Source of the DNA: Alphaproteobacteria bacterium
GTDB lineage: Bacteria; Pseudomonadota; Alphaproteobacteria; Rickettsiales; SXRF01
Assembly: GCA_033763575.1 (NCBI GenBank)
Contig: JANRKF010000013.1
Coordinates: 81,396-145,395 of the forward strand
Reading direction: 5' to 3'
DNA: 64,000 nucleotides
This document shows, in pieces, positions 1 to 53,586 of this stretch (the stretch's first letter is position 1; every line of letters begins with the position of its first letter). Made by a program: the position numbers and the translations under genes. Below the pieces are notes generated by a model. That model was not told the origin of the DNA. It searched no databases and saw only the letters and a list, made by a program, of their open reading frames with translations.

Positions 1-2628
1 GGCGGCACGCCGGACGATGCAAGCATCGTGCGCTTTGTCGAAGAAATTCGCTCGCGTGGCCTCAAGGTCGCGTTTTACCCGCTGCTGTTCATGGATATCA
101 TCGGCAAACCGTGGCGCGGGGAGCTGACCGGCAGCAGCGCCGATGTCGCAGACTTCTTCACCAAAGCGAACGGCTATAACGCCTTCATCAATCACTATGT
201 CGGCCTGCTTGCCGGCAAGGTCGACGCCTTCATCATAGGCTCGGAACTCAAAGGCCTCACCAGCGTTACAAGTACCCCCGGGGTGTATCCGGCGGTATCG
301 GCACTGGTAAGCCTTGCAGGCACGGTAAAAACCGCGCTCGGCGGCAGTGTCACCGTCACCTACGCCGCCGACTGGTCGGAATATCACCACACCGACGACG
401 GCTGGTATAACCTTGATCCGCTCTGGGCCTCTTCCAGCATCGACGTGGTCGGCATCGACGCCTATTTCCCCTTAAGCAACGTGCAGGCCAGCCTGTATGA
501 TATCGATGAAATCCGCGATGGCTGGACCTCCGGCGAGGGCTATGATTTTTATTATTCCGACCCGGAACGTACCACCGAAGTGGCGCTCGATCCGGAATTC
601 GCATGGAAAAATATCGCGTGGTTCTACAATAATACCCACGTCAATCCCGACATGTCCACCACCGGCTGGACCGCCGGCATGAAAAAAATCTGGTTTACCG
701 AGGTGGGGTATCCGAGCGTCGATGCCTGCACCAACCAGCCGAACGTGTTTTACGATCCGAGCAGCAGCGGCAGAGCCTTCCCTTATTTCTCCAAAGGCCG
801 CGTCGATATCCGCGCCCAGCGCGCCGCCCTCATGGCGACGCTTGAGGAATGGAAGGGTTCTTCCATCGTCGAACAGATATTCCTCTGGACCTGGGATGCG
901 CGGCCTTTCCCATACTGGCCCGACCTCACCAGCATCTGGAGCGACGGTGCGGCGTGGAAAACCGGCCACTGGGTGCAGGGCAAGCTCGGCATCTCGAATG
1001 TCTCGGCCATCGTTTCCGACCTCTGCGCCCGCGCCGGGCTGGACGAAACGCTCATCGACGTCGCCTCCGTCAATATACCCGTGGAGGGGTATGTGATCGG
1101 CCGCCAGCAGTCGCTCCGCAGCTGCATCGAAGCGCTGCAATCGGCATTCTTTTTCGATGCGGCGGAAAGCGATTACATCCTGAAATTCATCCCACGCGGC
1201 GGCGAGAGCATCCTCACCATCGAGGAGGATGATCTGGTGATGCAGGAACGCTCCGGCAGCAACAACAGCTTCACGCTCAGGCGCATGCAGGAGGTGGAGC
1301 TGCCCAAGCGGGTGAACGTCATGTATTTAAGCCGACTGACCGGCTACCAGACCGCTACTCAATATGGCGAGCGCCAGGTCACCGAATCGAAGGACATCAA
1401 CACGCTCGATTTGCCGCTGGTGATGAGCGACCAGACCGCCAAAAACATCGCCGATATTACGCTCTATACGGCGTGGCTTTCGCGGGTGTCGTTCGAGTTC
1501 ACGCTGCCGCCAAAATATGCGGCGCTGGAGCCGGCCGATGTGATTACCGTGAATGCGTCGGGCGTTGCCCACACCATGCGTATCCTCACCATGCGGCTGG
1601 TTTCCGGCGGCATCGAAGTGTCGGCGGTGGCGGAAGATATCGCGGCCTATGATTTTTATCAGATACCGGGGGAGGGTATCCTCGCCGATACCGATAATGC
1701 CACCCTGCCGGAGACGGAACTGGAATTGCTCGACATCCCGGCGCTGCCCGGCGACAATGAAACGCAGGCCTTCCTGCGTATTGCCGCCACCGGGAAATCG
1801 GCAGGCTGGAACGGGGCGGCCATTTACCGCTCCGACGATGATGGCGCGAATTACACGCGGCTGGTGGATGCCACCTCGGCCAGCGCCATCGGCACCGCCT
1901 CCACCGCGCTCCCCTCCGGCACCACCGCCGTCTTCGACGATGCGAACAGCGTCACCGTCCTGCTGATCGGCAACACCAGCCTGCAATCGGTGAGCGCACT
2001 CGCGGTGTTAAACGGCGCCAATGCAGCACTCCTCGGCAGCGAAATCATCCAGTTCAAAAATGCCACGCTGGTCGGCGATAACACTTACGAATTGTCGGGC
2101 TTGCTGCGCGGCAGGCTCGGCACGGAATGGGCGGTGGGCACGCATGCGGCAGGCGAACGCTTCGTGCTGCTGGATTCGACGCTCGCCAAGGTGTCGGGCA
2201 GCCAGCAGATCGTGGGCCTTGCACGCTCCTACAAGGCGGTGACGTATGGGGGCACGCTGGCCGCCGCACCCGCCGAGGATTATACCTATACCGGGCTGGG
2301 GTATAAACCCTACAGCCCGGTGCATCTCACCGGCACGCGTGACGGCGGCGGCAACCTGACGATCGGCTGGGTGCGCCGCACCCGCGTGGGCGGCGGGTGG
2401 ATGGACGGGGTGGACGCGCCGCTTTCCGAATCCTCCGAAGCCTACGAAATCGACATTATGGACGGCAGCGATGTGGTGCGAACCATTTCCACCGCCACCA
2501 CCACCGCCAGCTACTCTGCCGCCAGCCAGACCGCCGATTTCGGCAGCCCGCAGGCTTCCATCGATGTGCGCATCACCCAGCTCTCCGCCATAGTCGGGCG
2601 CGGCACGGCGGGCACGGCAACCATTTAA
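1..2628 (+). CDS. GTA/phage tail host-specificity protein (RcGTA ORFg15-like), 5' end cut by the window edge
   Basis: Frame 1 is open from nt 1 (GGTPDDASIVRFVEEIRSRGLKVAFYPLLFMD...) to TAA 2626-2628. The N-terminal part resembles the TIM-barrel-like glycoside-hydrolase domain and the rest the large tail domain of the last gene of alphaproteobacterial GTA clusters. Confidence 0.8.
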   Translation, partial: GGTPDDASIVRFVEEIRSRGLKVAFYPLLFMDIIGKPWRGELTGSSADVADFFTKANGYNAFINHYVGLLAGKVDAFIIGSELKGLTSVTSTPGVYPAVSALVSLAGTVKTALGGSVTVTYAADWSEYHHTDDGWYNLDPLWASSSIDVVGIDAYFPLSNVQASLYDIDEIRDGWTSGEGYDFYYSDPERTTEVALDPEFAWKNIAWFYNNTHVNPDMSTTGWTAGMKKIWFTEVGYPSVDACTNQPNVFYDPSSSGRAFPYFSKGRVDIRAQRAALMATLEEWKGSSIVEQIFLWTWDARPFPYWPDLTSIWSDGAAWKTGHWVQGKLGISNVSAIVSDLCARAGLDETLIDVASVNIPVEGYVIGRQQSLRSCIEALQSAFFFDAAESDYILKFIPRGGESILTIEEDDLVMQERSGSNNSFTLRRMQEVELPKRVNVMYLSRLTGYQTATQYGERQVTESKDINTLDLPLVMSDQTAKNIADITLYTAWLSRVSFEFTLPPKYAALEPADVITVNASGVAHTMRILTMRLVSGGIEVSAVAEDIAAYDFYQIPGEGILADTDNATLPETELELLDIPALPGDNETQAFLRIAATGKSAGWNGAAIYRSDDDGANYTRLVDATSASAIGTASTALPSGTTAVFDDANSVTVLLIGNTSLQSVSALAVLNGANAALLGSEIIQFKNATLVGDNTYELSGLLRGRLGTEWAVGTHAAGERFVLLDSTLAKVSGSQQIVGLARSYKAVTYGGTLAAAPAEDYTYTGLGYKPYSPVHLTGTRDGGGNLTIGWVRRTRVGGGWMDGVDAPLSESSEAYEIDIMDGSDVVRTISTATTTASYSAASQTADFGSPQASIDVRITQLSAIVGRGTAGTATI

Positions 2629-2645
2629 CCAGAAAGGACTTCACC

Positions 2646-3293
2646 ATGACCACCACCTCCCATATTGCCATCACGCTTGTCGAGCAATCGCAGGCGCAAA
2701 AAGAAGTGACCGTGAACGCGGCGCTCACCCGCATCGACGCGCTATTGAACACCGGCGCCAAAAGCCGCACCACCGCCACTCCGCCGGGCTCGCCGGGCGA
2801 AGGTGACCTTTATATTGTCGCGGCTTCCGCGACCGGCGCATGGGCCGGGCAGGACGACAAGCTGGCTTTTTACAACGCCGGCTGGAAATTCATCACGCCG
2901 GGGGAGGGGATACAGCTCTTCGTGCAGGATGAAGACGTGTTTTACCTCTATAACGGCAGCTCATGGTTCTCGCAGGCGATTTATATTTATACCGCGCTTG
3001 CCGGCACCGCGCACACGCTCGACAGCAGCTATGTGGGCAAAACCATCACCTTCACCAATGCCAGCGCCGTGGCGTTCACTTTGCCGAACGACCTCTATGT
3101 CGGTTTCAAATGCCGCGTAATTCAATACGGGGCGGGGCAGGTGACGTTCACCCCAGACTCCGGCGCCACCCGCCGCAACCGCAGCAGCCACACCAAAAGC
3201 GCTGGTCTTTATGCCGTATGCACGCTGGAAGTGGTGAGCAATTCCGGCGGCACGGCGGCGGAATATATCTTATCGGGGGACACGGCGGCATGA
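2646..3293 (+). CDS. DUF2793-domain protein (GTA/phage tail-fibre-associated)
   Basis: ATG 2646 follows an AAAGGA RBS, 17 nt after the g15 stop. MTTTSHIAITLVEQSQAQKEVTVNAALTRIDALLN...GDLYIV...AFYNAGWKFITPGEG matches the DUF2793 N-terminal signature that usually follows g15. The 5' part of track ORF 2397..3293 overlaps g15 and is not coding. Confidence 0.7.
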   Translation: MTTTSHIAITLVEQSQAQKEVTVNAALTRIDALLNTGAKSRTTATPPGSPGEGDLYIVAASATGAWAGQDDKLAFYNAGWKFITPGEGIQLFVQDEDVFYLYNGSSWFSQAIYIYTALAGTAHTLDSSYVGKTITFTNASAVAFTLPNDLYVGFKCRVIQYGAGQVTFTPDSGATRRNRSSHTKSAGLYAVCTLEVVSNSGGTAAEYILSGDTAA

Positions 3294-3469
3294 GTTACAT
3301 CATTCAGGAGCGCGGCTGGCGGCTCGACCGGCGCGTGCCGCTGGGCATGGTGCTGGCGATCGCGCTACAGCTCGGCGCGGCTCTCGTATGGGCGGCGCAG
3401 CTCGATACACGCGTCGCCCGGATCGAGAAGGATATCGATTACATGCGCACTAAAATGGAATTGTTATGA
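3290..3469 (+). CDS. Small single-pass membrane protein, putative holin or lysis accessory protein
   Basis: 59 aa, MSYIIQERGWRLDRRVPLGMVLAIALQLGAALVWAAQL + coiled-coil tail. ATGA overlaps both the upstream gene (3290-3293) and the lysozyme start (3466-3469), implying translational coupling. Function is inferred from position only. Confidence 0.45.
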   Translation: MSYIIQERGWRLDRRVPLGMVLAIALQLGAALVWAAQLDTRVARIEKDIDYMRTKMELL

Positions 3470-3897
3470 AAATATCCGAGAACGGCCTCCTCCTCATCAA
3501 GCGGTTCGAGGGGTTCTCGGCCACTCCTTATCTATGCCCGGCGGGGAAGCTGACCATCGGCTACGGGCATGTCCTAGCCCCGCATTTATTGCGGGGTCCG
3601 GTGACAATAAAAGAAGCCGAAAAACTTCTGCTTGCGGATCTGGCCCCCGTCGAGGCCGCCATCAACCGGCTGGTCGTGGCTCCGCTCACCCAGAACCAGT
3701 TCGATGCGCTATGCTCGCTCACCTATAATATAGGGGTGGGGGCGTTTGCAAAATCGACGTTGTTGCGCTTACTGAACACCACCAACCACCAACCATCAAC
3801 CACCAACCAATTTTCCCGCTGGGTCTATGGGGGTGGAAAACGCCTCGCCGGGCTGGAAAAACGCCGCCGCGCCGAAATGGAATTGTTTCAGCAATAA
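3466..3897 (+). CDS. GH24 phage-type lysozyme (endolysin)
   Basis: MKISENGLLLIKRFEGFSATPYLCPAGKLTIGYGH... has the canonical E-(8)-D/C-(5)-T lysozyme N-terminus. ...FDALCSLTYNIG...RWVYGGGKRLAGLEKRRRAE matches the family C-terminus. Confidence 0.85.
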   Translation: MKISENGLLLIKRFEGFSATPYLCPAGKLTIGYGHVLAPHLLRGPVTIKEAEKLLLADLAPVEAAINRLVVAPLTQNQFDALCSLTYNIGVGAFAKSTLLRLLNTTNHQPSTTNQFSRWVYGGGKRLAGLEKRRRAEMELFQQ

Positions 3898-4057
3898 CCC
3901 TCCCCCCTTGAGGGGGAGGGAAGGGTGGGGGGTGGCGGAATAAATGAGAAACTGAAATAGGTAGCAACCACCCCTCCCCCAACCCCTCCCTCAAGGGGAG
4001 GGGGATATCTATAAAATACAACAAGATAATTATAACACCCCCCACCCCCCCGCCACC
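3898..4057. repeat. Composite nested palindromic repeat (family 1, CCCTCCCC-N4-GGGGAGGG hairpins)
   Basis: Hairpins ccctccccccttgagggggaggg (3898-3920) and cccctccctcaaggggagggg (3983-4004). gggtggggggtggcgg (3923-3938) is inverted at 4038-4057. Internal segments resemble the elements at 21824-21958 and 38966-39126. Confidence 0.7.
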
Positions 4058-6108: not shown

Positions 6109-6151
6109 AGCCCCGCACTTGTTGCGGGGTCTGGTCTTCTTATAAGGCATT

Positions 6152-6185
6152 AAAAAACCCACCGTATCGAACGGTGGGTTTTTTT
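6152..6185. terminator. Bidirectional rho-independent terminator between convergent rpsU and ssb
   Basis: aaaaaacccaccgt-atcga-acggtgggtttttt: a perfect 8-bp GC-rich stem flanked by an A-run and a T-run. Confidence 0.75.
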
Positions 6186-6218
6186 GTAGCCGGACCCCGC
6201 AATAAATGCGGGGCTTGG

Positions 6219-9972: not shown

Positions 9973-10926
9973 ATGTCTGTTTTGTCTCTTTCCACCCCTC
10001 TGCGCGGCCATGCCGCCGTGGTGCTTTCCCAGCTTGAGCGCGAGATCGCGGCGGGCACGCTCGCTCACGGCATTTTGCTTTGCGGCCCGCAAGGTATCGG
10101 CAAGGCCACGCTCGCCTTCGCGCTTGCCCAAAAACTGCTGGGCGAGGGGGTGGGGGTGGAAGCCCGCATCCGGGCCGGATCGCACCCGGACCTGCTGGTG
10201 ATTTCCCGCCCTTACGACGAGAAAAAAGAGGAATTCGCCAAGGATATTCCGGTGGAGCAGACCCGCAAGATCGCCGAATTCCTGTCGCTCACCGCAGGCG
10301 AGGGCGCGTGGCGGGTGGTGATTATCGACGGCGCCGACGCGATGAATATGAGCGCCGCCAATTCCATCCTGAAAATTCTGGAGGAGCCGCCGCCCAACAG
10401 CGTGCTGATCCTGGTTGCCCATCAGGCCAGCCGCCTGCTGCCGACCATCCGCTCGCGCTGCCGCACCACCCGTGTGGCCCCGCTTTCCGAAGACGATTTT
10501 ACCGAGGTGATGCGCCATGCGCTGCCCGACCTCAGCCGCGAACATGGCCGGCGGCTCGGCGAACTCAGCGATTATGCCCCCGGCCTCGCGCTTACCCTCC
10601 ACGAGCAGGAAGCGCTCGACATGCAGGACCAGATGGAGCTGATTTTTGCCGGGTTGCCGCGCATCGCGCATGAGCGGGTGCTCGCCATGGCCGAACAGGT
10701 CGGCAGCGGCAAGCAGCACGCCAACTGGCAGCTTTTCTCGCGGCTGGCGCTCCACTGGATGGCAAGGCAGGCGCACATTACCGGCAGCAGCCATTGGGCG
10801 GAAGGCTGGCAACAGACCAGCCAGACATTCGCCACTTGCGAAGCGCGGCACCTTGACTATAAATCGGCGGTCATCAGTTTCTTCCACAGCCTGCCCAACC
10901 TCCAACCCACCGCACGTTCCGCATGA
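9973..10926 (+). CDS. holB: DNA polymerase III subunit delta'
   Basis: AAA+ clamp-loader motifs: HGILLCGPQGIGKATLAFALAQ (Walker A-like), VVIIDGADAMN, ANSILKILEEPP, TIRSRC. The start could be GTG 9952 or ATG 9973. Confidence 0.8.
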   Translation: MSVLSLSTPLRGHAAVVLSQLEREIAAGTLAHGILLCGPQGIGKATLAFALAQKLLGEGVGVEARIRAGSHPDLLVISRPYDEKKEEFAKDIPVEQTRKIAEFLSLTAGEGAWRVVIIDGADAMNMSAANSILKILEEPPPNSVLILVAHQASRLLPTIRSRCRTTRVAPLSEDDFTEVMRHALPDLSREHGRRLGELSDYAPGLALTLHEQEALDMQDQMELIFAGLPRIAHERVLAMAEQVGSGKQHANWQLFSRLALHWMARQAHITGSSHWAEGWQQTSQTFATCEARHLDYKSAVISFFHSLPNLQPTARSA

Positions 10927-12590
10927 GCCATTACTACATTACCACCCCGATTTATTATGTGAACGACCGCCCGCATATCGGCCATGCCTATACCTCGGTG
11001 GCGTGCGACGTGCTGGCCCGTTTCAAGCGCCTTTCCGGCGAAAACGTCCGATTTCTGACGGGTACGGACGAGCATGGGCAAAAGGTCGAAAAATCCGCAG
11101 CCGCACAGGGTATCTCCCCACAAGCCATGGCCGATGCGAACTCGCAACATTTCCGGGACATGGCGCAGCTCATGAATATCAGCAACGACGATTTCATCCG
11201 CACCACCGAGCCGCGCCATAAAAAAGCCGCGCAGGCATTATGGAAAAAAATGGCGGATCAAGGCTTCATCACGCTGGGTTCCTATGCCGGGTGGTATGCC
11301 GTGCGCGACGAAGCCTACTATGCCGAATCCGAATTGGTGAACGGCAAAGCCCCCACGGGCGCGGATGTCGAGTGGGTGGAGGAGCCGAGCTATTTCTTCA
11401 CGCTCTCGGAGTTTCAGGACAAGTTGCTGGCGTTTTACGAGGCCAACCCCGGCTTCATCCAGCCCGATTCCCGCCGCAACGAGATCATCAGCTTCGTGAA
11501 GGGAGGCCTTCGGGATTTATCCATCAGCCGCACCACCTTTAGCTGGGGTATTCCAGTGCCAATCACCTCCCCCAATAGGGGGGAGGGAGTACACATCATG
11601 TATGTCTGGCTGGATGCGCTCACCAACTATCTCTCGGCGCTCGGCTACCCCGAAAACACCCCGGAAATGGCCTTCTGGCCGGCCAGCCTGCACATGGTGG
11701 GGAAGGACATCATCCGCTTCCACGCGGTATACTGGCCGGCCTTCCTGATGGCCGCCGATTTGCCACTGCCGAAACAGGTCTTCGCGCATGGCTGGTGGAC
11801 GATCGAGGGCGAAAAAATGAGCAAATCGCTGGGAAATGCCATCGCGCCCGCCGATCTCGTCGCCGAATTCGGCCTCGACCAGACCCGCTGGTTCCTGATG
11901 CGCGAAGTGCCCTTCGGAAACGACGGCAATTTCAGCCGCGAGCGCATGATTACGGTCATTAACAGCGAGCTGGCCAACAATATCGGCAACCTCTGTCAGC
12001 GCACGCTGTCGATGATTGCCAAGAATTGTGATGGGAAAGTGCCAAATTGGAGTAAAAGTTGGGGCAGCAATCCAGACGACATAAAAAAAGCAGTGGAAAG
12101 AGCCTTAGCTCTTCCGCTCGGGGAATATGCTAAATTAACAAAAGAAGAGACTGCAAAACTTGAATCTTTAGCTCAGTTATATGATAGCGGCGGGGTATCT
12201 GCATCTGCTGTAGGAATCCGTGGTATTGATTTTGAAACAATTGCAGATCAAGTAAGCCACTGCCAATTTGATAAATATCTTGGAAATATAATTAAATGGT
12301 CATCTGAGGCAAATGAGTACATTGATAAATACGCGCCTTGGACATTTAAAAAAGAGAGTAAGCTAGAAGAGATGGAAGCTGTCCTTTTCTCCTTAGCTGA
12401 ATCTATTCGTAAAATAGCAATTTTACTTTGGCCAGTAATACCCACCTCTGCCGCTAAGATTCTTGATCAGTTGGCCGTGCCCCCTGCCGAGAGGGGGTTC
12501 AAGCATTTGAGTGCCGAATTCGCCCTGAAACCGGGCACGCCTCTCCCCCCCCCGAGTGGCGTATTCCCTCGCGTGGGGGGCGCGGTGTGA
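10923..12590 (+). CDS. metG: Methionine--tRNA ligase
   Basis: MSHYYITTPIYYVNDRPHIGHAYT (HIGH motif) ...KMSKSLGN (KMSKS motif). ATGA overlap with holB. Contains a short repeat-derived insertion (11563-11592) and an AT-rich 3' segment. Confidence 0.93.
   Translation: MSHYYITTPIYYVNDRPHIGHAYTSVACDVLARFKRLSGENVRFLTGTDEHGQKVEKSAAAQGISPQAMADANSQHFRDMAQLMNISNDDFIRTTEPRHKKAAQALWKKMADQGFITLGSYAGWYAVRDEAYYAESELVNGKAPTGADVEWVEEPSYFFTLSEFQDKLLAFYEANPGFIQPDSRRNEIISFVKGGLRDLSISRTTFSWGIPVPITSPNRGEGVHIMYVWLDALTNYLSALGYPENTPEMAFWPASLHMVGKDIIRFHAVYWPAFLMAADLPLPKQVFAHGWWTIEGEKMSKSLGNAIAPADLVAEFGLDQTRWFLMREVPFGNDGNFSRERMITVINSELANNIGNLCQRTLSMIAKNCDGKVPNWSKSWGSNPDDIKKAVERALALPLGEYAKLTKEETAKLESLAQLYDSGGVSASAVGIRGIDFETIADQVSHCQFDKYLGNIIKWSSEANEYIDKYAPWTFKKESKLEEMEAVLFSLAESIRKIAILLWPVIPTSAAKILDQLAVPPAERGFKHLSAEFALKPGTPLPPPSGVFPRVGGAV
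11563..11592. repeat. Family-1 hairpin (cctccccc-aata-ggggggagg) embedded in frame in metG
   Basis: cacctcccccaataggggggagggagtac encodes ITSPNRGEG between the conserved GIPVP and HIMYVWLDAL blocks. Confidence 0.6.
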
Positions 12591-13366: not shown

Positions 13367-13372
13367 AGACAC

Positions 13373-13464
13373 GTCATTGCGAGGAGGCAACGCCAACGAA
13401 GCAATCCATCTCTCAACAAGCGGGGGCATGGATTGCCGCGCTCCCGGTGGTCGCTCGCAATGAC
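13373..13464. repeat. Family-2 palindromic element (GTCATTGCGAG...CTCGCAATGAC)
   Basis: gtcattgcgaggaggcaacgccaacgaagcaatccat...atggattgccgcgctcccggtggtcgctcgcaatgac has terminal and internal inverted repeats. Related copies are at 48027-48105, 39212-39284, 24031-24114 and 32050-32114. Confidence 0.75.
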
Positions 13465-13481
13465 GAGAACGGAGCATTATA

Positions 13482-19729: not shown

Positions 19730-19954
19730 ATGACAACTATCAAACTTTCCGATGATCTGGTGAACGATGCCAAGCGCTATGCAGCGGTGTTCAGCCGCTC
19801 CGTGCCCAAACAAATCGAATATTGGTCGCGCATTGGAAAAATCGTCGAGGAAAATCCGGATTTGCCCTACGAATTCATTCAGGAGCTTTTGCTTGCATTA
19901 GAGGATGACGACATTACTCCATTTGAATTTTCTAAACCAAAACGCAAAAAATGA
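19730..19954 (+). CDS. ParD-like type II antitoxin
   Basis: MTTIKLSDDLVNDAKRYAAVFSRSVPKQIEYWSRIGKIVEENPDLPYEFI resembles the ParD_like family. ATGA overlap with the downstream toxin. Confidence 0.7.
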   Translation: MTTIKLSDDLVNDAKRYAAVFSRSVPKQIEYWSRIGKIVEENPDLPYEFIQELLLALEDDDITPFEFSKPKRKK

Positions 19955-20229
19955 TCCTCGAACAAACTTCTTATTTTGCCAAAGCAATGAAGAAGTTGCG
20001 CGCCAATCAACGTGCATACGCTGAAAAGGCAATTCAGGACATAATGCATAATCCTTCGATAGGCGTAGCAAAGAAAGGAGACCTTGACGGGGTACGAGTC
20101 TATAAATTTTATATGTTAAAACAGCTAACCTTATTATCATACACTTATACCCATGAGCGCCTTACATTGCGTTTAATTTCACTGGGCAGCCATGAGAATT
20201 TTTACCGCGACCTGAAAAAATCCCACTGA
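19951..20229 (+). CDS. RelE/ParE-family type II toxin
   Basis: 92 aa, ...KKGDLDGVRVYKFYMLKQLTLLSYTY...LISLGSHENFYRDLK. Size, pattern and coupling to the antitoxin fit the RelE/ParE superfamily. Confidence 0.7.
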   Translation: MILEQTSYFAKAMKKLRANQRAYAEKAIQDIMHNPSIGVAKKGDLDGVRVYKFYMLKQLTLLSYTYTHERLTLRLISLGSHENFYRDLKKSH

Positions 20230-20323: not shown

Positions 20324-21193
20324 ATGAAATCCGATTTCACCTTCGCCAAAGACGACGCCCACCGCTTCCTGCCATGGCATATCGGCATCATGGTGGCGCT
20401 CGCCACCTTCCTGCTGTCGCTGGTGCTGGCGCTCGGCGGCTGGGTCGGCGACCACCGCGAGGATTACACCGCGAATATTTCGGTCATCCTGCCCGGCGCG
20501 CTCGAAAATCTCGATGATAAAACCGCCAGGGTCAAAGCCGTCCTCGGCAAGGAAAAATCCATCGCCGAGGTGAAGCAGGTGAGCGAAAGCAACCTGCGCG
20601 AGCTGCTGGTGCCATGGATCGGCAACGGCGACGCGCTGCTCGATATGGCGCTGCCGGTGGTGCTTGACGTCACCCTGAAAGAAGACGCCGCGCCGCTGGA
20701 TGAAAAATCGCTGCAAAAAGCCCTTTCCGACATCGAACCGACCATCGAACTCGATACCCATAATAGCTGGGCGGAGGTATTCGCCACCTTCATCCGCATC
20801 CTGCAAGGGCTGGCGGTGACGCTGGTGGCGACCATTCTGGGCGCGATGACGCTGATGATCGTGTTTTCCGCCCGCGCCTCGCTGCACCTGCACCAGCGCA
20901 CGGTGGACCTGCTGCATGCCATGGGCGCGGAAGACGGCTATATCGCCCGCCAGTTCCAGCATGAGCATTTCAAGATCGGCCTGAGGGCCGCGGCCATCGG
21001 TACGGCGGCGGCGGCATTCGCCTATTGGGGCCTCGGCCTCTGCGTTGCCGCCATCAAGGCGCCAGTGCTGCCAAGCTTCGCTTTTTCCCAGCCGCATATC
21101 GCGCTGGTGCTGCTGATGCCGCTCGGCTGCGCGCTGGTCGTGCGTTATACCACGCGGGTTTCGGTGCTGGGCCAGCTAAGGGAAATCCTCTGA
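20324..21193 (+). CDS. ftsX: Cell-division ABC transporter permease FtsX
   Basis: One N-terminal TM, a periplasmic loop and three C-terminal TMs, with the conserved LHAMGAEDGYIARQF block. No ftsE lies upstream in this window. Confidence 0.75.
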   Translation: MKSDFTFAKDDAHRFLPWHIGIMVALATFLLSLVLALGGWVGDHREDYTANISVILPGALENLDDKTARVKAVLGKEKSIAEVKQVSESNLRELLVPWIGNGDALLDMALPVVLDVTLKEDAAPLDEKSLQKALSDIEPTIELDTHNSWAEVFATFIRILQGLAVTLVATILGAMTLMIVFSARASLHLHQRTVDLLHAMGAEDGYIARQFQHEHFKIGLRAAAIGTAAAAFAYWGLGLCVAAIKAPVLPSFAFSQPHIALVLLMPLGCALVVRYTTRVSVLGQLREIL

Positions 21194-21810
21194 TGCTCAC
21201 AATGTTCCGCACGCTGTTCTGCACCCTGATGCTGGTGGCGGTGTGGGCGCTCGCGGTCGCCGGGTTCGCTTTCTACATCAACCAGTATGCGCTGGAAGAA
21301 AATGCCCGCGCCGATGGCATCGTGGTGCTGACCGGCGGCGGCGGACGCATCGAATATGGCCTCGAATTATTCGGACAAAATCGCGGCAGGCTGCTCTTCA
21401 TCAGCGGCGTCGGCAAGCAGGTGCCGCTTGCCGACCTGCTGGTCAAGGCTCCCGATGCCGCGCAGGCGATATTAAACGGCAATACGCTGGGCCGCATCAC
21501 GCTGGGCCGCGAGGCGGCCAACACCATCGGCAACGCCAGGGAAAGCACCGACTGGATCAAAAAACACCACCTGAAATCGGTGCTGCTGGTCACCGCCGAT
21601 TACCATATGCCACGGGCGCTGATGGAGTTTTCCACCGAGCTTCCCGGCAATGTCATCCTCATCCCGGCCCCGGTCAAAACCCAAAACTACATTGATTTTA
21701 CATGGATCAGAGATGCCGAGATCCGCAATATCGTGCTCGCCGAATTCCACAAGCTGATCGCCGCGCAAATCCGGCATTATGTCATCAGCACAAGCGATGA
21801 AGCCGCATGA
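21193..21810 (+). CDS. YdcF/DUF218 family protein
   Basis: N-terminal TM, then GIVVLTGGGGRIEYGLELF, LLFISGV, VTADYHMPRA (DUF218 blocks). ATGA overlap with ftsX. Confidence 0.7.
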   Translation: MLTMFRTLFCTLMLVAVWALAVAGFAFYINQYALEENARADGIVVLTGGGGRIEYGLELFGQNRGRLLFISGVGKQVPLADLLVKAPDAAQAILNGNTLGRITLGREAANTIGNARESTDWIKKHHLKSVLLVTADYHMPRALMEFSTELPGNVILIPAPVKTQNYIDFTWIRDAEIRNIVLAEFHKLIAAQIRHYVISTSDEAA

Positions 21811-21823
21811 TTCTCCTGCGCTC

Positions 21824-21958
21824 ATATTCCTCCCCCAGTAGGGGGGAGGCCAGGAGGGGGGCATTATTTATTCCGCCTCCCGTGGATGCCCCCACCCCCC
21901 TACGCCCAGTGGCTTCGGGGGACGCAGCCCCAACCCTCCCCCTAATGGGGAGGGCGCA
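21824..21958 (+). mobile_element. Family-1 palindromic element (about 135 bp, MITE/RPE-like) flanked by a 17-bp direct duplication
   Basis: atattcctcccccagtaggggggagg...ccctccccctaatggggagggcgca. Flanks are atgattctcctgcgctc (21807-21823) and atgattttcctgcgctc (21959-21975). Its reverse complement is about 85% identical to 38966-39126. Confidence 0.8.
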
Positions 21959-22657
21959 ATGATTTTCCTGCGCTCGCTGCTGTTCAATATTCTGTTTACC
22001 GCCTGGGCGTTCGTTACCTCGGTATTGTTTGCGCCGCTCTTCCTGATATCGCCGAAAAGCGCGGGCAAGCCGTGGGCGCGGGGGGCATTGTGGCTGGCGA
22101 AAACCATACTCGGCATCACCCACGAAGTGCGTGGCCGCGAGCACCTCACCAACCAGCCGGTGATCTATGCCTCCAAGCATCAATCGGCGTGGGATACGAT
22201 TATTTTTTTGGTGCTGCTCGACGCGCCGTGCTATGTGCTGAAACGTGAGCTGCTGCGCATTCCCGGCTGGGGTTGGTATCTGTGGCGGATGGGCATGATC
22301 GCCATCGACCGCTCCGGCAGCGCCAGCGCCATGAAACAGATGCTGCGCGACGCGAAGGCACGCATCAGCGAGGGCCGCACCATCGTGATTTTCCCCGAAG
22401 GCACCCGCAAAAAACCCGGCGACGCGCCGGACTACCACCCGGGCGTGATCGCGCTCTATAGCCAGCTCGGCGTGCCGACCATCCCGGTCGCGCTCAATTC
22501 CGGCCTGTGCTGGGGTAAGGATGCGTTTTTCAAAACACCCGGGAAAATCATCATCAGCTTCCTGCCGCCCATCCCGCCGGGTTTGCCCAAAAAAGAATTC
22601 ATGGAGACACTGCAGCCACAGATAGAAACAGAGAGCAGCGCACTCGCCGGCCTTTAA
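21959..22657 (+). CDS. plsC: 1-acyl-sn-glycerol-3-phosphate acyltransferase
   Basis: HQSAWD (HX4D) and FPEGTR acyltransferase motifs, with an N-terminal TM. Confidence 0.85.
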   Translation: MIFLRSLLFNILFTAWAFVTSVLFAPLFLISPKSAGKPWARGALWLAKTILGITHEVRGREHLTNQPVIYASKHQSAWDTIIFLVLLDAPCYVLKRELLRIPGWGWYLWRMGMIAIDRSGSASAMKQMLRDAKARISEGRTIVIFPEGTRKKPGDAPDYHPGVIALYSQLGVPTIPVALNSGLCWGKDAFFKTPGKIIISFLPPIPPGLPKKEFMETLQPQIETESSALAGL

Positions 22658-32114: not shown

Positions 32115-32231
32115 CTCGTGCCACATACTGAATAACCCTAGCCCCCGCAACAAGTGCGGGGTGACAAAAGAAAGAAACGACCACCATTTTTTATCAACCA
32201 TTTTCCCCAAGAAAAAGTAAGGAGAATCACT

Positions 32232-36572: not shown

Positions 36573-36669
36573 GTACAAGCTATTATTCGGTCGGTGATGA
36601 GAGCGCAGCAGGCGCGAACCAGCCATGAGCAAGCTTCATGCGATTTGCAGGAGCAAATCGCGGAAGCAG

Positions 36670-37812
36670 CTATAAAAGCTCCTCATACACCGCCAGCGTT
36701 TTCTCACACATGGTATCGAGTGAAAAACGCTCCGCCTGCTTGCGCGCATCGCGGGCGATGTGCTGCTGCATCGTTTCATCCAGCCCCATCACGTTCTCGA
36801 TCGCGGCGGCGAGCGCCCCCACATCACCCGGCGGCACCAGAAGACCTGTTTCCCCGTGAATCACCGTTTCCTGAGGCCCGCCGTGGCTGGTGGCGATCAC
36901 CGGCTTGCCCATCGCCTGCGCTTCCAGCACCACGCGGCCAAACGCCTCCGGCTCAATCGATGTGGCAACCACCACCCGCGCCAGCATATAGGCCTCGGTG
37001 ATATGCTGCGTATGCTCGGCAAAGCGCACATGCTCCTCCAGCCCCAGCTCGGTGATGAGCGACTCCAGCTCGCCGCGATAGCTCCCGCCTTTTTTATCGT
37101 CGCCTAAAATCACCGCGAAGAAATGACGGTGCGGCAGCGCGGCGAGTGCGCGCAGGAACACGTCCTGCCCTTTCCAGCGGGTGATGCGGCCGGGAAATAA
37201 AATCACCGGCAGCTCCATCGGCAGCCGCCATTCCTTGATCAGCGCGTCCATCCGCTGGTGCGAAAATAAATCGGGGGTGAATAAATTCAGATCCACCCCG
37301 CGATGGATGATGCGGATATTGGCCGGATCGACCGCATAATTCGCCTTGATATGCTCGGCGATGAAATTGGAAATGGCGATCACCCGCTCGCCCTTCACCA
37401 TCACGCTGTTATAGCGGTGCTTGAAACGGTTCTGGATGCCGTAGGTGCCATGGAAGGTGGTGACGAAACGGCAGCCGGTCTTATAAGCCGCAAGCCACGC
37501 GCACCATGCCGGCGCACGGCTTCTGGCATGCACGATATCCACCCCATGCTCGCGGATGATGCCCACCAGCGCACGCGCATTGCGCCACACGGTGAAGGGG
37601 TTTTTGCTATCGAGCGGCAGGGTGATATGCTCGGCGCCAAGGCGAAACAGCTGATACATCATCTTGCCGCCGCTGGAGGCGACCAGCGCCCGTCCGCCCG
37701 CCTGCTGGATGGCACGGGCGATTTCCACCGTACCGCGCTCTACCCCGCCGCTGGAAAGAGCGGGCAGCACTTGCAGAATGACAGGGGGCTTTTTATCGTG
37801 CATGGGGTACAT
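36670..37812 (-). CDS. Glycosyltransferase family 4
   Basis: ILQVLPALSSGGVERGTVEIA... and a C-terminal EX7E region EPEAFGRVVLEAQAMGKPVIATSHGGPQETV. The start is set at the ATG with a GGAGG RBS. Confidence 0.8.
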   Translation of the reverse strand: MYPMHDKKPPVILQVLPALSSGGVERGTVEIARAIQQAGGRALVASSGGKMMYQLFRLGAEHITLPLDSKNPFTVWRNARALVGIIREHGVDIVHARSRAPAWCAWLAAYKTGCRFVTTFHGTYGIQNRFKHRYNSVMVKGERVIAISNFIAEHIKANYAVDPANIRIIHRGVDLNLFTPDLFSHQRMDALIKEWRLPMELPVILFPGRITRWKGQDVFLRALAALPHRHFFAVILGDDKKGGSYRGELESLITELGLEEHVRFAEHTQHITEAYMLARVVVATSIEPEAFGRVVLEAQAMGKPVIATSHGGPQETVIHGETGLLVPPGDVGALAAAIENVMGLDETMQQHIARDARKQAERFSLDTMCEKTLAVYEELL

Positions 37813-38429: not shown

Positions 38430-39386
38430 ATGATGGCTGAATTTCTTGAAACCCCCGCCCATCCGCTCGCCTACCGCACACAGGAAGGCAGCGGCCCCAC
38501 GGTGATGTTCTGCACCGGCTTCATGTCGGACATGGCGGGCACCAAGGCCGAAACGCTTTCCACCCATTGCGCCGCACGCGGGCAATCCTTCATCCGCTTC
38601 GATTATTCCGGCCATGGCCAGTCCGGCGGCGATTTCATGGACGGCACCATCGGCCAGTGGAAACGCGATACGCTGGCGGTGCTGGACGAACTAACCGAAG
38701 GGCCGGTGGTGCTGGTGGGCTCCAGCATGGGCGCATGGCTGGCCCTGCTCGCGGCGATGGAAAGGCCCGAACGCATCAAAGCCCTCATCGGCATTTCCGC
38801 CGCGCCGGATTTCACCGAACGGCTGATCTGGCAGAAGCTCGCCGCCGCCCAGCAGCAGGAATTGCTGGAAAAGGGGGTGTTTTACGCGCCATCCTGCTAT
38901 GGTGAAGCGCCCTACCCCATCACCCGCAGGCTGATTGAGGAGGCGCGGTCGCACCTGCTTATTACTCCCTCCCCATCCGCCTGCGCGCAAGCGCTGCGGC
39001 GGGACAAGTTAGGGGGAGGGTCGGGGCTGCGCCCCCCGAAGCCACTGGACATAGGGGGGTGGAGGCATCCACGCTCGGATGGAGAAAATAATGCCCCCCT
39101 CCTAACCTCCCCCCTACAGGGGGAGGATATTCCCATCCACCTGCTACACGGCACAAGGGATGAGGATGTGCCGGTGGAAATCGCCCATTTGCTGGTTGAA
39201 AGGTTAAAATCGTCATCCTGCGGCCCACAACGTGGGAGCACAGTATCCATGGATTCTGCGCAGCCTTCCGGCTCGCAGAATGACAATACAAGAATACAAC
39301 TCGCCCTGATTGAGGGCGGCAACCACCGCTTAAGCGAACCCGAAGATTTGCGCTTGCTTTGCCGTACCGTTTGTGATATTAGTTAA
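38430..39386 (+). CDS. Alpha/beta-fold hydrolase carrying two in-frame repeat-element insertions
   Basis: GSSMGAW nucleophile elbow, HGTRDEDVP (Asp) and GGNHRLS (His). The frame stays open across elements at 38966-39126 and 39212-39284. Confidence 0.75.
   Translation: MMAEFLETPAHPLAYRTQEGSGPTVMFCTGFMSDMAGTKAETLSTHCAARGQSFIRFDYSGHGQSGGDFMDGTIGQWKRDTLAVLDELTEGPVVLVGSSMGAWLALLAAMERPERIKALIGISAAPDFTERLIWQKLAAAQQQELLEKGVFYAPSCYGEAPYPITRRLIEEARSHLLITPSPSACAQALRRDKLGGGSGLRPPKPLDIGGWRHPRSDGENNAPLLTSPLQGEDIPIHLLHGTRDEDVPVEIAHLLVERLKSSSCGPQRGSTVSMDSAQPSGSQNDNTRIQLALIEGGNHRLSEPEDLRLLCRTVCDIS
38966..39126 (-). mobile_element. Family-1 palindromic element inside the hydrolase CDS (inverted relative to 21824-21958)
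   Basis: Its reverse complement aligns by eye with 21829-21954 at about 85% identity. The terminal hairpin loop holds an extra ~33-bp palindrome (ccgcctgcgcgcaagcgctgcggcgg). Confidence 0.8.
39212..39284. repeat. Family-2 variant element inside the hydrolase CDS (GTCATCCTGCG...CTCGCAGAATGAC)
   Basis: gtcatcctgcggcccacaacgtgggagcacagtatccatggattctgcgcagccttccggctcgcagaatgac. It has the same termini and central atccatggat core as 13373-13464. Confidence 0.7.
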
Positions 39387-47210: not shown

Positions 47211-47314
47211 ATAAACCTCCGCACCTGAACCGTTATGTGAGCGCAGCAGCGCGAACCAGCCTTGAGCCAGCTTCATGCGAAAGTCAGCAGACTTTCGCGG
47301 AAGCCTCCTTAAAG

Positions 47315-48118
47315 TTAAACCGTCCCGAAGCTCTTAATAAGGCTCCCCGCCAGCATATACCAGCCGTCGATCAGCACAAAGAAAATAATCTTGAACGGCA
47401 GCGAGATCACCACCGGCGGCAGCATCATCATCCCCATCGCCATCAGGATGGAGGCCACCAGCATATCGATGATGATGAACGGGATAAACAGCAGGAAACC
47501 GATCTCGAAAGCGCGTTTCAGCTCACTAATCATGAAGCCGGGAATGAGCACGCGGTAGGGCGTATCGGCAGGCGTTTCGATGGTGAGGCCCGGCGACATA
47601 TCGACAAACAGTTTCAAATCCTGCGCCCGCACATGCGCCAGCATGAAGGCATGAAACGGCGCGCCGATTTTTTCCAGCGCCTCTTTCTCGTCAATGCGCT
47701 CTTCCAGCAACGGCTGCACGCCCTGCTCATACGACGCCTGAAACACCGGCGCCATGATGAACAAAGTAAGGAACAGCGCCAACGAAATGAGCACCTGGTT
47801 GGGCGGCGTCTGTTGCAGGCCGAGCGCGCTTCGCAGCATGGAGAGCACGATGATGATACGCATGAACGAGGTCATCATCACCAGGATCGAAGGCGCAAGG
47901 CTGATGACCGTCATCACGATAATGAGCTGGATCAGCCGCCCGGTCGCGCCGCCGCTGGTGGTGTTCCCGAGGTCGATATTCATCGACTGGGCAAAGGCAT
48001 TATCAGTGTGCATAAACAAGGTTATCGTCATTGCGAGGAGGCATAGCCGACGAAGCAACCCAATTTTCTGATGGCTGGATTGCTTCGCCTGCGGCTCGCA
48101 ATGACGTACATTAAACAT
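47315..48118 (-). CDS. fliP: Flagellar type III export protein FliP
   Basis: ...LIQLIIVMTVISLAPSILVMMTSFMRIIIVLSMLRSALGLQQTPPNQVLISLALFLT is canonical. ATG 48118 overlaps the fliO stop. Residues 5-31 are encoded by a family-2 element. Confidence 0.85.
   Translation of the reverse strand: MFNVRHCEPQAKQSSHQKIGLLRRLCLLAMTITLFMHTDNAFAQSMNIDLGNTTSGGATGRLIQLIIVMTVISLAPSILVMMTSFMRIIIVLSMLRSALGLQQTPPNQVLISLALFLTLFIMAPVFQASYEQGVQPLLEERIDEKEALEKIGAPFHAFMLAHVRAQDLKLFVDMSPGLTIETPADTPYRVLIPGFMISELKRAFEIGFLLFIPFIIIDMLVASILMAMGMMMLPPVVISLPFKIIFFVLIDGWYMLAGSLIKSFGTV
48027..48105. repeat. Family-2 palindromic element inside the 5' end of fliP
   Basis: gtcattgcgaggaggcatagccgacgaagcaacccaattttctgatggctggattgcttcgcctgcggctcgcaatgac. 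Confidence 0.8.
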
Positions 48119-51205: not shown

Positions 51206-51279
51206 TTGATAGTTGTTGGTTGTTGGAAAAATAAAACCCTGCTACACCACCAACTATCAACCACCAACCATCAACCGCC
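51205..51279. repeat. Family-3 heptamer-built palindromic element
   Basis: Left arm gttgata-gttgttg-gttgttg, loop aaaaataaaaccctgctaca, right arm caccaac-tatcaac-caccaac-catcaac. Confidence 0.7.
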
Positions 51280-51546: not shown

Positions 51547-51640
51547 AATGGTTGCCAGGTTTCTGGGTTGCTAGGTTTCTTGGTAAGGATTACATTGCTA
51601 CACCTAGCAACCTAGAAACTCAGCAACCCAGCAACCACCT
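51547..51640. repeat. Family-3 palindromic element (ggttgc/aggtttc arms)
   Basis: ggttgccaggtttctgggttgctaggtttcttggt - loop - acctagcaacctagaaactcagcaacccagcaacc (imperfect ~35-bp arms). Confidence 0.7.
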
Positions 51641-51644
51641 TCCG

Positions 51645-52409
51645 ATGACCCTCAATGATTTCCTTGTCTCCGAAATATTCACCTTCCTGCTGATTTTCTG
51701 CCGGGTGGGCACGGCGTTGATGATTCTTCCCGGTTTCGGCGAAGCATTTGTGAGTGCGCGTGTGCGGCTGCTGCTGGCGCTGATGTTTAGCCTGGTGCTC
51801 ACCCCGGCGCTGCCCGATTTCCCCGCCCCGCCCAGCCACGTATTCACGCTGATGACCATCATGATGGCGGAAATTCTCACCGGTATTTTCTTCGGGATGC
51901 TGGGCCGCCTGATGCTGGCTGCGATCAGCACCGCCGGTATGATCATCGCCTACCAGGCCGGGCTGGCCTCGGCGCTGGTGCAGGACGTAACGATTGCCGG
52001 CGGCCAGGCCTCCAGCCTCGGCAACCTGCTCGGCATCACCGCGATGGCGCTGCTGTTCGCCACCAACATGCATCATCTGATGTTGCAGGCGCTGATGGAC
52101 AGCTACCAGATTTTCCCGGTCGGGCAGTTTCCGAATGTCGAGGATTTCACCTGGCAGGCGGCGAAGATCGTGAACAGCTCGTTCCTGATTTCGCTGCAGA
52201 TCGCCGCCCCCCATATCGTCATTGGGCTGGTGGTCTATCTCGCGGGCGGTATCACCGGGCGGCTGATGCCGAGCCTGCAGGTGTTTTTCATCCTGCTGCC
52301 GCCGCAGCTAATACTCAGCTTTTTCGTGCTGATGGTGGCGTGGAGCAGCATTATGATGTGGTATATGGATTATTTCCGCGACGGCATCTCACAGTTTGTG
52401 GGGCAGTAA
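51645..52409 (+). CDS. fliR: Flagellar type III export protein FliR
   Basis: MTLNDFLVSEIFTFLLIFCRVGTALMILPGFGE... with multiple TMs. The upstream part of the track ORF is repeat sequence. Confidence 0.85.
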   Translation: MTLNDFLVSEIFTFLLIFCRVGTALMILPGFGEAFVSARVRLLLALMFSLVLTPALPDFPAPPSHVFTLMTIMMAEILTGIFFGMLGRLMLAAISTAGMIIAYQAGLASALVQDVTIAGGQASSLGNLLGITAMALLFATNMHHLMLQALMDSYQIFPVGQFPNVEDFTWQAAKIVNSSFLISLQIAAPHIVIGLVVYLAGGITGRLMPSLQVFFILLPPQLILSFFVLMVAWSSIMMWYMDYFRDGISQFVGQ

Positions 52410-52411
52410 AG

Positions 52412-52500
52412 GAGTCTTGGTTGCTAGGTTGCTTAGTCTCTTGGTAAGCAATCAGAAACCAGGTAACATAGAGACCAAGTAACCTAGAGACCTAGAAACC
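52412..52500. repeat. Family-3 palindromic element
   Basis: gtcttggttgctaggttgcttagtctcttggt - loop - accaggtaacatagagaccaagtaacctagagacctagaaac. Confidence 0.65.
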
Positions 52501-52509
52501 GAGATATAC

Positions 52510-53586
52510 ATGGCTGAGGGCGGAGATCAGGATAAGGACCAGAAGACCGAAGAACCAACCTCCAAGAAATTGCAGGAGGCGTTCGAGAAAGGTAATGTGC
52601 CGTTCTCGCGGGAGCTGGGGCACTTCCTCATGCTGTTTCTGCTGGCCTTAATCATCGCGAATTATTCACCCGGCATATTGCGCGACACCCGCAACCTGCT
52701 CGAACATTACATTCTCAATGTCGACACCATCGCCGTCGATAAAACCGGGGTGAGCATCATCTTGCGCGATCTGGCCTTCGGCGGGATCATGGTGTTGGCG
52801 GTGCCGCTGATCGGCTCGGTGATCGTGGCGCTCGCCGCCGGATTCTTGCAAAACGGCATCGTGATTTCCGCCGAAAGCATCAAGCCGAAATTCAGCAAAA
52901 TATCGCCGGTGGCGGGGCTTAAAAAGATTTTCTCGATGCGCACCCTGGTCGAGTTTATCAAAAATATCGTCAAGATCAGCATCGTGAGCATCGTCGCCTT
53001 CATGGCGGTGTACCCGGAGCTTTCGCACCTGAGAGAACTCTCCAACCACAGCGCCGAAGGTATTCTGCTGTTCCTCGCCAAGCTCGCCACGCAGGTGGCA
53101 ACGGGTGTGGCCATCGCCATGTTTTTCATCGCGCTGTTCGATCTGGTCTATCAACGATTGCACCACATGAAATCGCTGCGCATGACCAAGCAGGAAATCA
53201 AAGACGAATATAAGCAGAGCGAGGGCGATCCGATCATCAAGCAACGGCTGCGGGCGCTCCGGCAGGAAAAAGCCAAGCAGCGCATGATGGGACAGGTGCC
53301 GAAATCCGATGTGGTGATTACCAACCCGACCCACTTCGCCATCGCGCTTTCCTATCGGCCCAAGGAGCATAAAGCGCCGGTGGTGGTGGCCAAGGGGCAG
53401 GATCTGATAGCGCTGAAAATCAAGGAAGTGGCGGAGGAACATGATATACCGGTGATACAGAATCCGCCGCTCGCCCGTGCGCTATTCGCATCCGCCGAGC
53501 TGGAGGAGGAAATCCCGCTCGTCCACTATGAAGCAGTGGCGAAAATCATCTCCTACGTCTATAAGCTGAAGGGTCGGCGGATGTAG
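52510..53586 (+). CDS. flhB: Flagellar type III export protein FlhB
   Basis: ...DKDQKTEEPTSKKLQEAFEKGNVPFSRELG..., 4 TMs, ...VVITNPTHFAIAL (NPTH autocleavage site). Confidence 0.9.
   Translation: MAEGGDQDKDQKTEEPTSKKLQEAFEKGNVPFSRELGHFLMLFLLALIIANYSPGILRDTRNLLEHYILNVDTIAVDKTGVSIILRDLAFGGIMVLAVPLIGSVIVALAAGFLQNGIVISAESIKPKFSKISPVAGLKKIFSMRTLVEFIKNIVKISIVSIVAFMAVYPELSHLRELSNHSAEGILLFLAKLATQVATGVAIAMFFIALFDLVYQRLHHMKSLRMTKQEIKDEYKQSEGDPIIKQRLRALRQEKAKQRMMGQVPKSDVVITNPTHFAIALSYRPKEHKAPVVVAKGQDLIALKIKEVAEEHDIPVIQNPPLARALFASAELEEEIPLVHYEAVAKIISYVYKLKGRRM

Follow-up and report, generated by a model that had tools for sequence, protein, structure and literature searches.

The 64,000-nt window analysed here (positions 81,396 to 145,395, forward strand, of contig JANRKF010000013.1 from the alphaproteobacterial metagenome-assembled genome (MAG) GCA_033763575.1) carries a 135-bp palindromic element at the junction of ydcF and plsC. 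Insertion of this element in the lineage of the MAG, with duplication of 17 bp of its target, is well supported by comparison with empty sites in relatives. The element is probably a non-autonomous palindromic mosaic repeat which entered plsC 17 nt into the gene, at the ancestral ATGA; repeats of its family would normally insert without a duplication, and selection would here have kept a rare duplicating outcome. The duplicated start region, an open frame and a Shine-Dalgarno (SD) sequence supplied by the element plausibly rebuild the coupling together. The junction is a clean natural case of an essential, translationally coupled gene pair absorbing a selfish insertion.

Insertion at the ydcF/plsC junction

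The two 17-mers which flank the element, ATGATTCTCCTGCGCTC on the left and ATGATTTTCCTGCGCTC on the right, are identical at 16 of 17 positions, and the gap between them is exactly 135 bp (Table 1). The original prediction had described this repeat from the letters of the DNA; its coordinates and match count were reproduced. A search of the 64 kb allowing up to three mismatches found both copies, one chance match with three mismatches, and nothing more. The ATG of the left copy shares ATGA (21807-21810) with the ydcF stop. That this copy represents the ancestral coupled plsC start, and today would open a relay open reading frame (ORF), is well supported. The TGA of the relay ORF overlaps the present plsC ATG in a second ATGA (21959-21962). 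Stops and starts overlap twice, between ydcF and the relay ORF and between the relay ORF and plsC, and the predicted relay from ydcF through the element to plsC does exist at the sequence level. Repeat and element together measure 152 nt (17 + 135), a length of 2 mod 3. The frame of the old ATG therefore meets the TGA of the right-hand ATGA and the element adds nothing to PlsC; an in-frame N-terminal extension of the protein is ruled out by the same count. The N-terminus of PlsC in relatives is also MIFLRS, in agreement with a start at 21959. The ydcF start at 21193 was placed by protein length in relatives (194-204 aa). An exact-protein look-up of PlsC returned one Logan contig of 1.2 kb, which ends within the element; the same look-up of YdcF returned no match.

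To compare the junction, contigs were identified for PlsC homologues with identities of 82%, 80% and 79%. These relatives have the gene order of the window (grpE ... ftsX-DUF218-plsC-rph-ham1-dsbD). The element is absent between ydcF and plsC in all three (L002, L003 and L005/L006), and stop and start overlap there, as ATGA or TGATG; the overlap is 4 nt (ATGA) in L002 and L005/L006 and 1 nt in L003. In the closest relative, L002, the junction is ggcATGATTTTCCTGCGCTCg, which is the exact right-hand 17-mer. L002 reads ...gcgcggcATGATTTTCCTGCGCTCgttgctgttcaatat and the window, with the element and one repeat taken out, reads ...gaagccgcATGATTTTCCTGCGCTCgctgctgttcaatat, a near base-for-base agreement. 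The sole mismatch between the two copies lies in the left one (T>C at 21813, Phe>Leu), which no longer codes for PlsC, and the right copy equals the outgroup. The left copy has kept the ancestral ydcF context and the right copy the ancestral plsC sequence. No hairpin units of the element were found in about 45 kb of DNA from the relatives, against seven in the window, which points to a gain specific to this lineage. The original prediction had staked the insertion on element-free relatives with an ATGA-coupled junction matching the 17-mer. Overlapping ydcF and plsC were found in the three empty sites and the exact 17-mer at the ATGA junction of L002, and the insertion with target duplication is upheld.

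Read from the left, the element consists of ATATT, hairpin A, the 5' half of stem B (AGGAGGGGGGC), a variable centre, GCCCCCA, a nested 33-nt hairpin, CCCCAA, hairpin C and CGCA. The design of the repeat is two inverted G/C-tract hairpin units, CCTCCCCC-nnTA-GGGGGGAGG, around a GGAGGGGGGC...GCCCCCACC stem. Hairpins A and C are inverted copies, judged from the asymmetry of their loops (nnTA vs TAnn). The left 35 nt match the reverse complement of the right end at 25/35 positions in a canonical member and at 23/36 in this copy, forming terminal inverted repeats, and the element ends are conserved among members in the family alignment. Beyond the ends, the inverted repeat continues weakly into the flanks across the family (left yT, right A[G/A]), where there is no direct repeat. 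Lengthening the duplication to 20-21 bp by means of CGC(A) was considered and is too weak to build on. The left-junction ATATTC is echoed by AATATTC at 21986-21992 (ATATT 21987-21991), 11 nt 3' of the right 17-mer, a recurrence with a chance probability of about 3%. It could hint at a longer original duplication whose left copy later lost 11 nt; this too is too weak to build on.

A GGAGG supplied by the element (21949-21953) forms part of the 3' arm of hairpin C and precedes the plsC ATG by 5 nt (-10 to -6). In the predicted fold the motif is sequestered in the 8-bp G/C stem of the hairpin (-17.2 kcal/mol). A scan of the element for promoters and terminators gave no promoter-like or terminator-like site. 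None of the other members listed has hairpin C just 5' of a real gene start, so the donation of an SD sequence is unique to the ydcF/plsC copy. The ancestral reinitiation context is intact at the old ATG, and the relay ORF passes through both hairpins before it stops at the new ATGA. Ribosomes ending ydcF would reinitiate at the old ATG, and their passage along the 51 codons would melt hairpin C. Termination at the TGA overlapping the new ATG would then be followed by reinitiation on plsC, and the GGAGG freed from the 3' arm would aid it. It is plausible that a ribosome on the relay ORF would both expose the SD sequence and reach the plsC start itself.

The relay ORF might instead be incidental, plsC being initiated directly at a strong GGAGG derived from the element and uncoupled from ydcF. 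The motif is ideally spaced for this, and since members of the family are stop-free in 2-4 of six frames, an open relay frame is unsurprising: a frame open for 51 codons is expected by chance in roughly 1 in 2-3 frames for the family, and the correct phase in 1 in 3. However, the 8-bp G/C stem keeps the GGAGG closed until an upstream translating ribosome or breathing opens it, the ancestral reinitiation context remains at the old ATG, and the relay ORF terminates exactly on ATGA. Direct initiation is a possibility to be entertained, with some doubt.

Table 1. Positions of the junction features and of related repeats in the 64,000-nt window
Feature	Position	Strand	Basis or remark
ydcF-like gene (DUF218)	21193..21810	+	ORF list; Pfam DUF218 E = 1.9e-16; stop TGA 21808-21810
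Left 17-mer copy ATGATTCTCCTGCGCTC	21807..21823	+	5' flank alignable to the 3' end of ydcF in relative L002
Relay ORF, 51 codons, MILLRS...MGRAQ	21807..21962	+	old ATG, through the element, to TGA 21960-21962
Inserted palindromic mosaic element, 135 bp	21824..21958	+	absent from relatives; nhmmer 65.8 bits over 21829-21954
Hairpin A CCTCCCCC-agta-GGGGGGAGG, left terminal inverted-repeat unit	21829..21849	+	8-bp stem, -17.2 kcal/mol
Nested ~33-nt hairpin CCCCCCTACGCCCAGTGGCTTCGGGGGACGCAG	21895..21927	+	-14.6 kcal/mol; boundaries ambiguous by 4 nt (CCCC repeat)
Hairpin C CCCTCCCC-cuaau-GGGGAGGG, right terminal inverted-repeat unit	21934..21954	+	-17.2 kcal/mol, 85% of ensemble
Right 17-mer copy ATGATTTTCCTGCGCTC	21959..21975	+	present plsC start; identical to the L002 empty site
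plsC (1-acyl-sn-glycerol-3-phosphate acyltransferase), 232 aa	21959..22657	+	ORF list; 100% identity to NCBI MAG protein, PF01553
Second copy, same subfamily	38967..39126	-	in frame in alpha/beta-hydrolase gene 38430..39386
Singlet hairpin unit CCTCCCCC-aata-GGGGGGAGG	11566..11586	+	in frame in metG (10923..12590)
Weak diverged intergenic member	3899..4002	+	nhmmer 24.5 bits, full model length; 3' of phage-type lysozyme gene

Other copies and the question of a family-wide duplication

The second copy in the window is 88% identical to the ydcF/plsC copy once its extra 33-nt insert is taken out. Its hairpin A unit lies at 39106-39126 on the reverse strand, and the extra 33-nt hairpin, found in copy 2 only, lies within the loop of hairpin C (38976-39008). 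Both copies have the nested hairpin of about 33 nt (21895-21927 and 39027-39059), flanked by CCCC and situated between GCCCCCA and CCCCAA; in the family alignment it occurs in 2/2 window copies and in 0/11 metagenome seed members. A shared derived insert and 88% identity indicate a subfamily which multiplied after gaining the insert, and by this evidence the two window copies form a young local subfamily. Hairpins of about 33 nt inside elements amount to a mosaic nesting like that of BIME-type repeats.

The empty site of copy 2 was identified in the closest relative, L017 (JGI 3300050207), which reads CAC CTG CTG CTG GAG AAA CCC ATC CCC CTT CAC TGC CCC ATC CAC. The filled site reads CAC CTG CTT ATT ACT [element] AT ATT CCC ATC CAC, without a duplication and with a loss of about 24-27 bp of target. 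The loop codons xKPIPLxC, present in 8/8 aligned homologues, are missing from it. An 8-bp sequence flanking copy 2, AGCAGGTG, was considered as a target duplication and rejected; both occurrences are ancestral HLL codons in all homologues. The singlet unit in metG likewise replaced about 4 codons by 10 without a duplication: ITSPNRGEGV (10 residues) stands in place of GDEK (4) of Brucella MetRS, just before the conserved HxMYVWxDAL.

The alpha/beta-hydrolase gene which houses copy 2 contains a second in-frame insert at 39210-39293 (+), SSSCGPQRGSTVSMDSAQPSGSQNDNTR, which is another palindromic repeat (CGTCATCCTGCG...ATCCATGGAT...CGCAGAATGACA, -31 kcal/mol). The gene (38430..39386) holds two unrelated repeat families, both in frame. 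The family of the second insert is also found at 13372-13465 and 48026-48062 (CGTCATTGCGAGG...CTCGCAATGACG). A relative (P0122/L017) has an insert at the position of 39210-39293, so that insertion looks older than that of the G/C-tract element.

Target duplication was examined across the family by taking the best direct repeat between 40-nt flanks in 23-24 members with complete flanks, with 548 mismatched flank pairs as the null. The ydcF/plsC copy scored 14.5 (16/17), against a null maximum of 11 in the 548 pairs. In the other members the best flank repeat has 3-7 matches, which is the same distribution as that of the mismatched pairs. Among the matches listed, a long flanking repeat is thus found in 1/24 full-length members, the ydcF/plsC copy; a duplication of characteristic length at each copy is not seen, and copy 2 has none. 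The original prediction had looked for duplications of 15-20 bp at other copies, and the 23 other full-length members listed gave none above the null. It had also read the 17-bp duplication as direct evidence of a transposition-like mechanism. An insertion with a duplication stands; a hallmark shared by other copies does not, 23/24 of the listed members being without a long repeat. The duplication is not supported as a family trait, and appears as a one-off, specific to this event.

Origin of the duplication

Insertion of the element and duplication of 17 bases of its target (ATGATTTTCCTGCGCTC) would have been one event. Of the resulting copies, the left would still close ydcF and retain the old ATG, and the right would provide an intact plsC start. 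The duplication could have arisen by fill-in of a staggered break, or by a template switch re-entering the target 17 nt upstream of its exit. Because an essential plsC start overlaps the ydcF stop, no insertion here would be viable without a duplication, so the duplicating outcome would be retained. In the family at large, insertion usually leaves no duplication and occasionally removes target, a pattern better matched by break repair, by template switching or by an HUH/RAYT-like single-strand route than by the staggered cut of a DDE-type enzyme.

Regular transposition would make the element a miniature inverted-repeat transposable element (MITE) whose transposase is encoded elsewhere and makes a staggered cut, of 17 bp or of variable long length, at every insertion, with the duplication as its hallmark. 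The clean 16/17 direct repeat abutting the element and the imperfect 35-nt terminal inverted repeats are what such a history would leave, and YPAL/RU-2 of Yersinia, with variable duplications of 3-26 bp, is a precedent (PMC2229807). This explanation is nevertheless unlikely: 0/23 other full-length members listed have a flank repeat above the null, and copy 2, of the same subfamily and in the same genome, shows at its known empty site a loss of target and no duplication. The hairpins are also separated from the repeats by 5 nt and 4 nt of unexplained sequence. In line with the original prediction, no transposase was found in the window. Pfam scans of approximately 60 window ORFs, some of which gave no Pfam match of any kind, found no transposase, integrase or RAYT family.

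Two histories would separate the duplication from the insertion or reverse the direction of change. The junction might have undergone a 17-bp tandem duplication before an element was inserted, without duplication, between the copies. The family is otherwise duplication-free on insertion, and the intermediate would have been nearly neutral: tandem ATGATTTTCCTGCGCTC x2 reads ATG ATT TTC CTG CGC TCA TGA, a mini-ORF of 6 codons which again ends in ATGA and keeps the coupling. Such a course is quite improbable: the same site would have to undergo two rare events, with the element landing exactly at the boundary of the copies (roughly 1 in 17), and none of the relatives compared shows the intermediate. 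Direct repeats as long as 17 bp are able to promote precise deletion, and the element might be ancestral at the junction and have been lost by relatives in this way; empty sites would look alike under either history. Yet the element is missing from three separate relatives, their approximately 45 kb contain zero hairpin units, and the subfamily marked by the nested 33-nt insert is young and was found nowhere else. Present data point to element-bearing genomes nested within element-free ones, and the original insertion would still need a duplication. Ancestral presence followed by loss is very improbable.

Several points weigh against the preferred history of a duplication-free family with one duplicating insertion. 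The right junction, CGCA, is atypical, the family usually having A at +1. The five nucleotides of the left junction (ATATT) are of unclear origin, and the inserted DNA is delimited only approximately. The full copies examined from the source genome number two, and it is possible that this subfamily has a habit of long duplications of its own. The metagenome members may be old, and duplications of 5 nt or less are indistinguishable from chance.

The repeat family and its relation to known systems

Scanning metagenomes for just the hairpin (CCTCCCCCNNTAGGGGGGAGG) gave at least 120 loci. About 20 of the loci listed, mostly of 46-62% G+C, have the same modular element, approximately 92-110 bp overall, in the order hairpin A, nn, AGGAGGGGGGC, 25-45 variable nt, GCCCCCACCCyAA and hairpin C. 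An nhmmer model built from 13 seeds (11 metagenome and 2 window) recovers at least 24 full-length members, which are the two window copies and 22 in the metagenome loci listed. Among these matches, 15/24 lie within reading frames that stay open for 60 codons or more to either side, window copy 2 included (in-frame metagenome loci L021, L030, L037, L041, L048, L053, L063, L069, L078, L081, L105, L110 and L125). All 14 metagenome host genes belong to conserved Pfam families, and for most the domain match runs across the insert. They encode an exonuclease III family protein, a PD-(D/E)XK nuclease, TGT, an alpha/beta hydrolase, an acetolactate-synthase-type TPP enzyme, an ABC exporter, an AMP-binding enzyme, ClpB, acetyl-CoA synthetase (Acs, twice), a TilS-type PP-loop protein, TrmD, ArgRS and coproporphyrinogen oxidase.

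The family is apparently undescribed. A scan of GTDB representative genomes, which do not include the source species, with the core AGGAGGGGGGCATTATTT gave ten chance matches, none of them related, and JGI metagenomes scanned for GTGGCTTCGGGGGNCGCAGCCCC, a segment specific to the subfamily, yielded no match. When the six-frame translations of both copies were joined and searched against proteins, the window's own hydrolase alone was returned, so the 135-bp subfamily has not been seen in other called proteins. Rfam scans of the whole window (gathering threshold) and of 21700-22100 (permissive) assigned no family, the best score being 20.6 bits against a cut-off of 42, and a literature search on the hairpin sequence found nothing relevant.

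Related hairpin modules occur among the loci listed on contigs of 26-74% G+C. In L024, L035, L040, L045, L047, L085, L096 and others the hairpin is preceded by CCCCCACCCC(g/a)(g/a)C, on contigs of 55-70% G+C. In other loci it is followed by GTTGGGGTGGGGGT, on contigs of 26-50% G+C. Full doublets and apparent half units both occur. The spread of contexts over this range suggests a superfamily distributed over very different hosts. In class 1 integron contexts, a right half-module, CCCCCACCCTAACCCTCCCCCtaaaatGGGGAGGG, separates a truncated folK from sul4 and is followed by a similar CTCCCTCTCCC/GGGAGAGGG hairpin; it is found in Sphingobium yanoikuyae plasmid pF1 (L138; NZ_CP033227.1 331903-331940) and in two Aeromonas plasmids. 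Its place beside sul4 in integrons indicates that related hairpin modules travel with mobile resistance DNA.

The window holds further small repeats. A 65-nt repeat is present at 36612-36676 and 47249-47313 (77% identical), and the stem of its internal hairpin, CATGCGATTTGCAGGAGCAAATCGCG / CATGCGAAAGTCAGCAGACTTTCGCG, is kept through compensatory changes. Terminator-like hairpins CCCCGCAAyAAryGCGGGG with conserved flanks make up another small repeat family (3573-3612, 6111-6141, 6179-6218 and 32131-32161). Short periodic repeats of the ACCAACC / GGTTGCTAGGTT type occur in both orientations at 3776-3808, 51244-51276, 51549-51628 and 52410-52445, around the flagellar export genes fliR/flhB (51552..53586) and at the 3' end of the lysozyme gene. 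Positions 28-3897 contain gene-transfer-agent-type tail genes (GTA_TIM, Phage-tail_3, Rcc01698_C) and then the phage-type lysozyme gene. A ParE-like toxin gene (19951-20229) is located directly 5' of ftsX.

The repeat family is of more interest than the single ydcF/plsC event. Palindromic repeats in frame within conserved genes have so far been seen as a speciality of Rickettsia; a second, unrelated-looking family in uncultured Alphaproteobacteria widens the phenomenon. Copies with known empty sites provide material on an insertion mechanism without regular target duplication. A broader proposal can be made tentatively: the family may represent an undescribed and widespread class of G/C-tract palindromic mosaic repeats, lodged in frame in housekeeping genes in the manner of Rickettsia palindromic elements (RPEs) but well outside Rickettsia, which an unknown enzyme would insert without duplication. 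The 17-bp duplication would then be a rare trace of an insertion intermediate (a staggered break or template switch), kept by selection on an essential coupled start.

Among known systems, the element is best placed in the class of small palindromic repeats, where it resembles REPINs in architecture and RPEs in behaviour. RPEs are stop-free in several frames and are fused in frame within conserved housekeeping genes (PMC10969869, PMC2229807); their target duplication is listed as '?'. The present family shares with them a palindromic build, a length of about 100-150 bp, terminal inverted repeats and an open frame, and it too lies in frame within conserved genes (15/24 members listed, and in the window copy 2). 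The likeness is one of properties; in sequence, this family is built of G/C tracts. Its host is an uncultured alphaproteobacterial MAG of 56% G+C and not a Rickettsia, and membership of the RPEs is unlikely. The ydcF/plsC copy differs from RPEs further in that it is out of frame and sits at a gene junction instead of within a gene.

Repetitive extragenic palindromic (REP) sequences and the REPIN-RAYT system were compared by their general properties, after PMC3733652 and general knowledge. As in these, the unit is an imperfect palindrome of 21 nt which occurs singly (metG) or as inverted doublets around a spacer, small hairpins are nested in a mosaic, and most copies lack a target duplication. 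REP units have a conserved GTAG or CGTC tag at their head; here a variable tetranucleotide is present in the loop, often GTAG, with TTAG, CTAG and ATAG also common, in a search pattern that fixed only TA. Unlike REP sequences, the family is mostly intragenic, 15/24 members listed being inside ORFs, and Pfam scans found no RAYT gene in the window. Classical MITEs (Correia, ERIC, RUP) are also short, non-coding and multi-copy, have terminal inverted repeats and may donate expression signals. At 135 bp the element is below 300 bp, encodes no transposase, occurs in multiple copies and has terminal inverted repeats; classical MITEs, however, are AT-rich, with TA termini and a fixed short duplication, whereas this family has a G/C-tract build and lacks a consistent duplication. 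YPAL/RU-2 of Yersinia is a small palindromic element, not AT-rich, which is reported to make target duplications of variable length (3-26 bp) beside dyad symmetry (PMC2229807). Likened by description, it differs in the phylum and class of its host and in that the present family shows a duplication at 1/24 copies listed, but it is the best precedent for a 17-bp duplication made by a small repeat.

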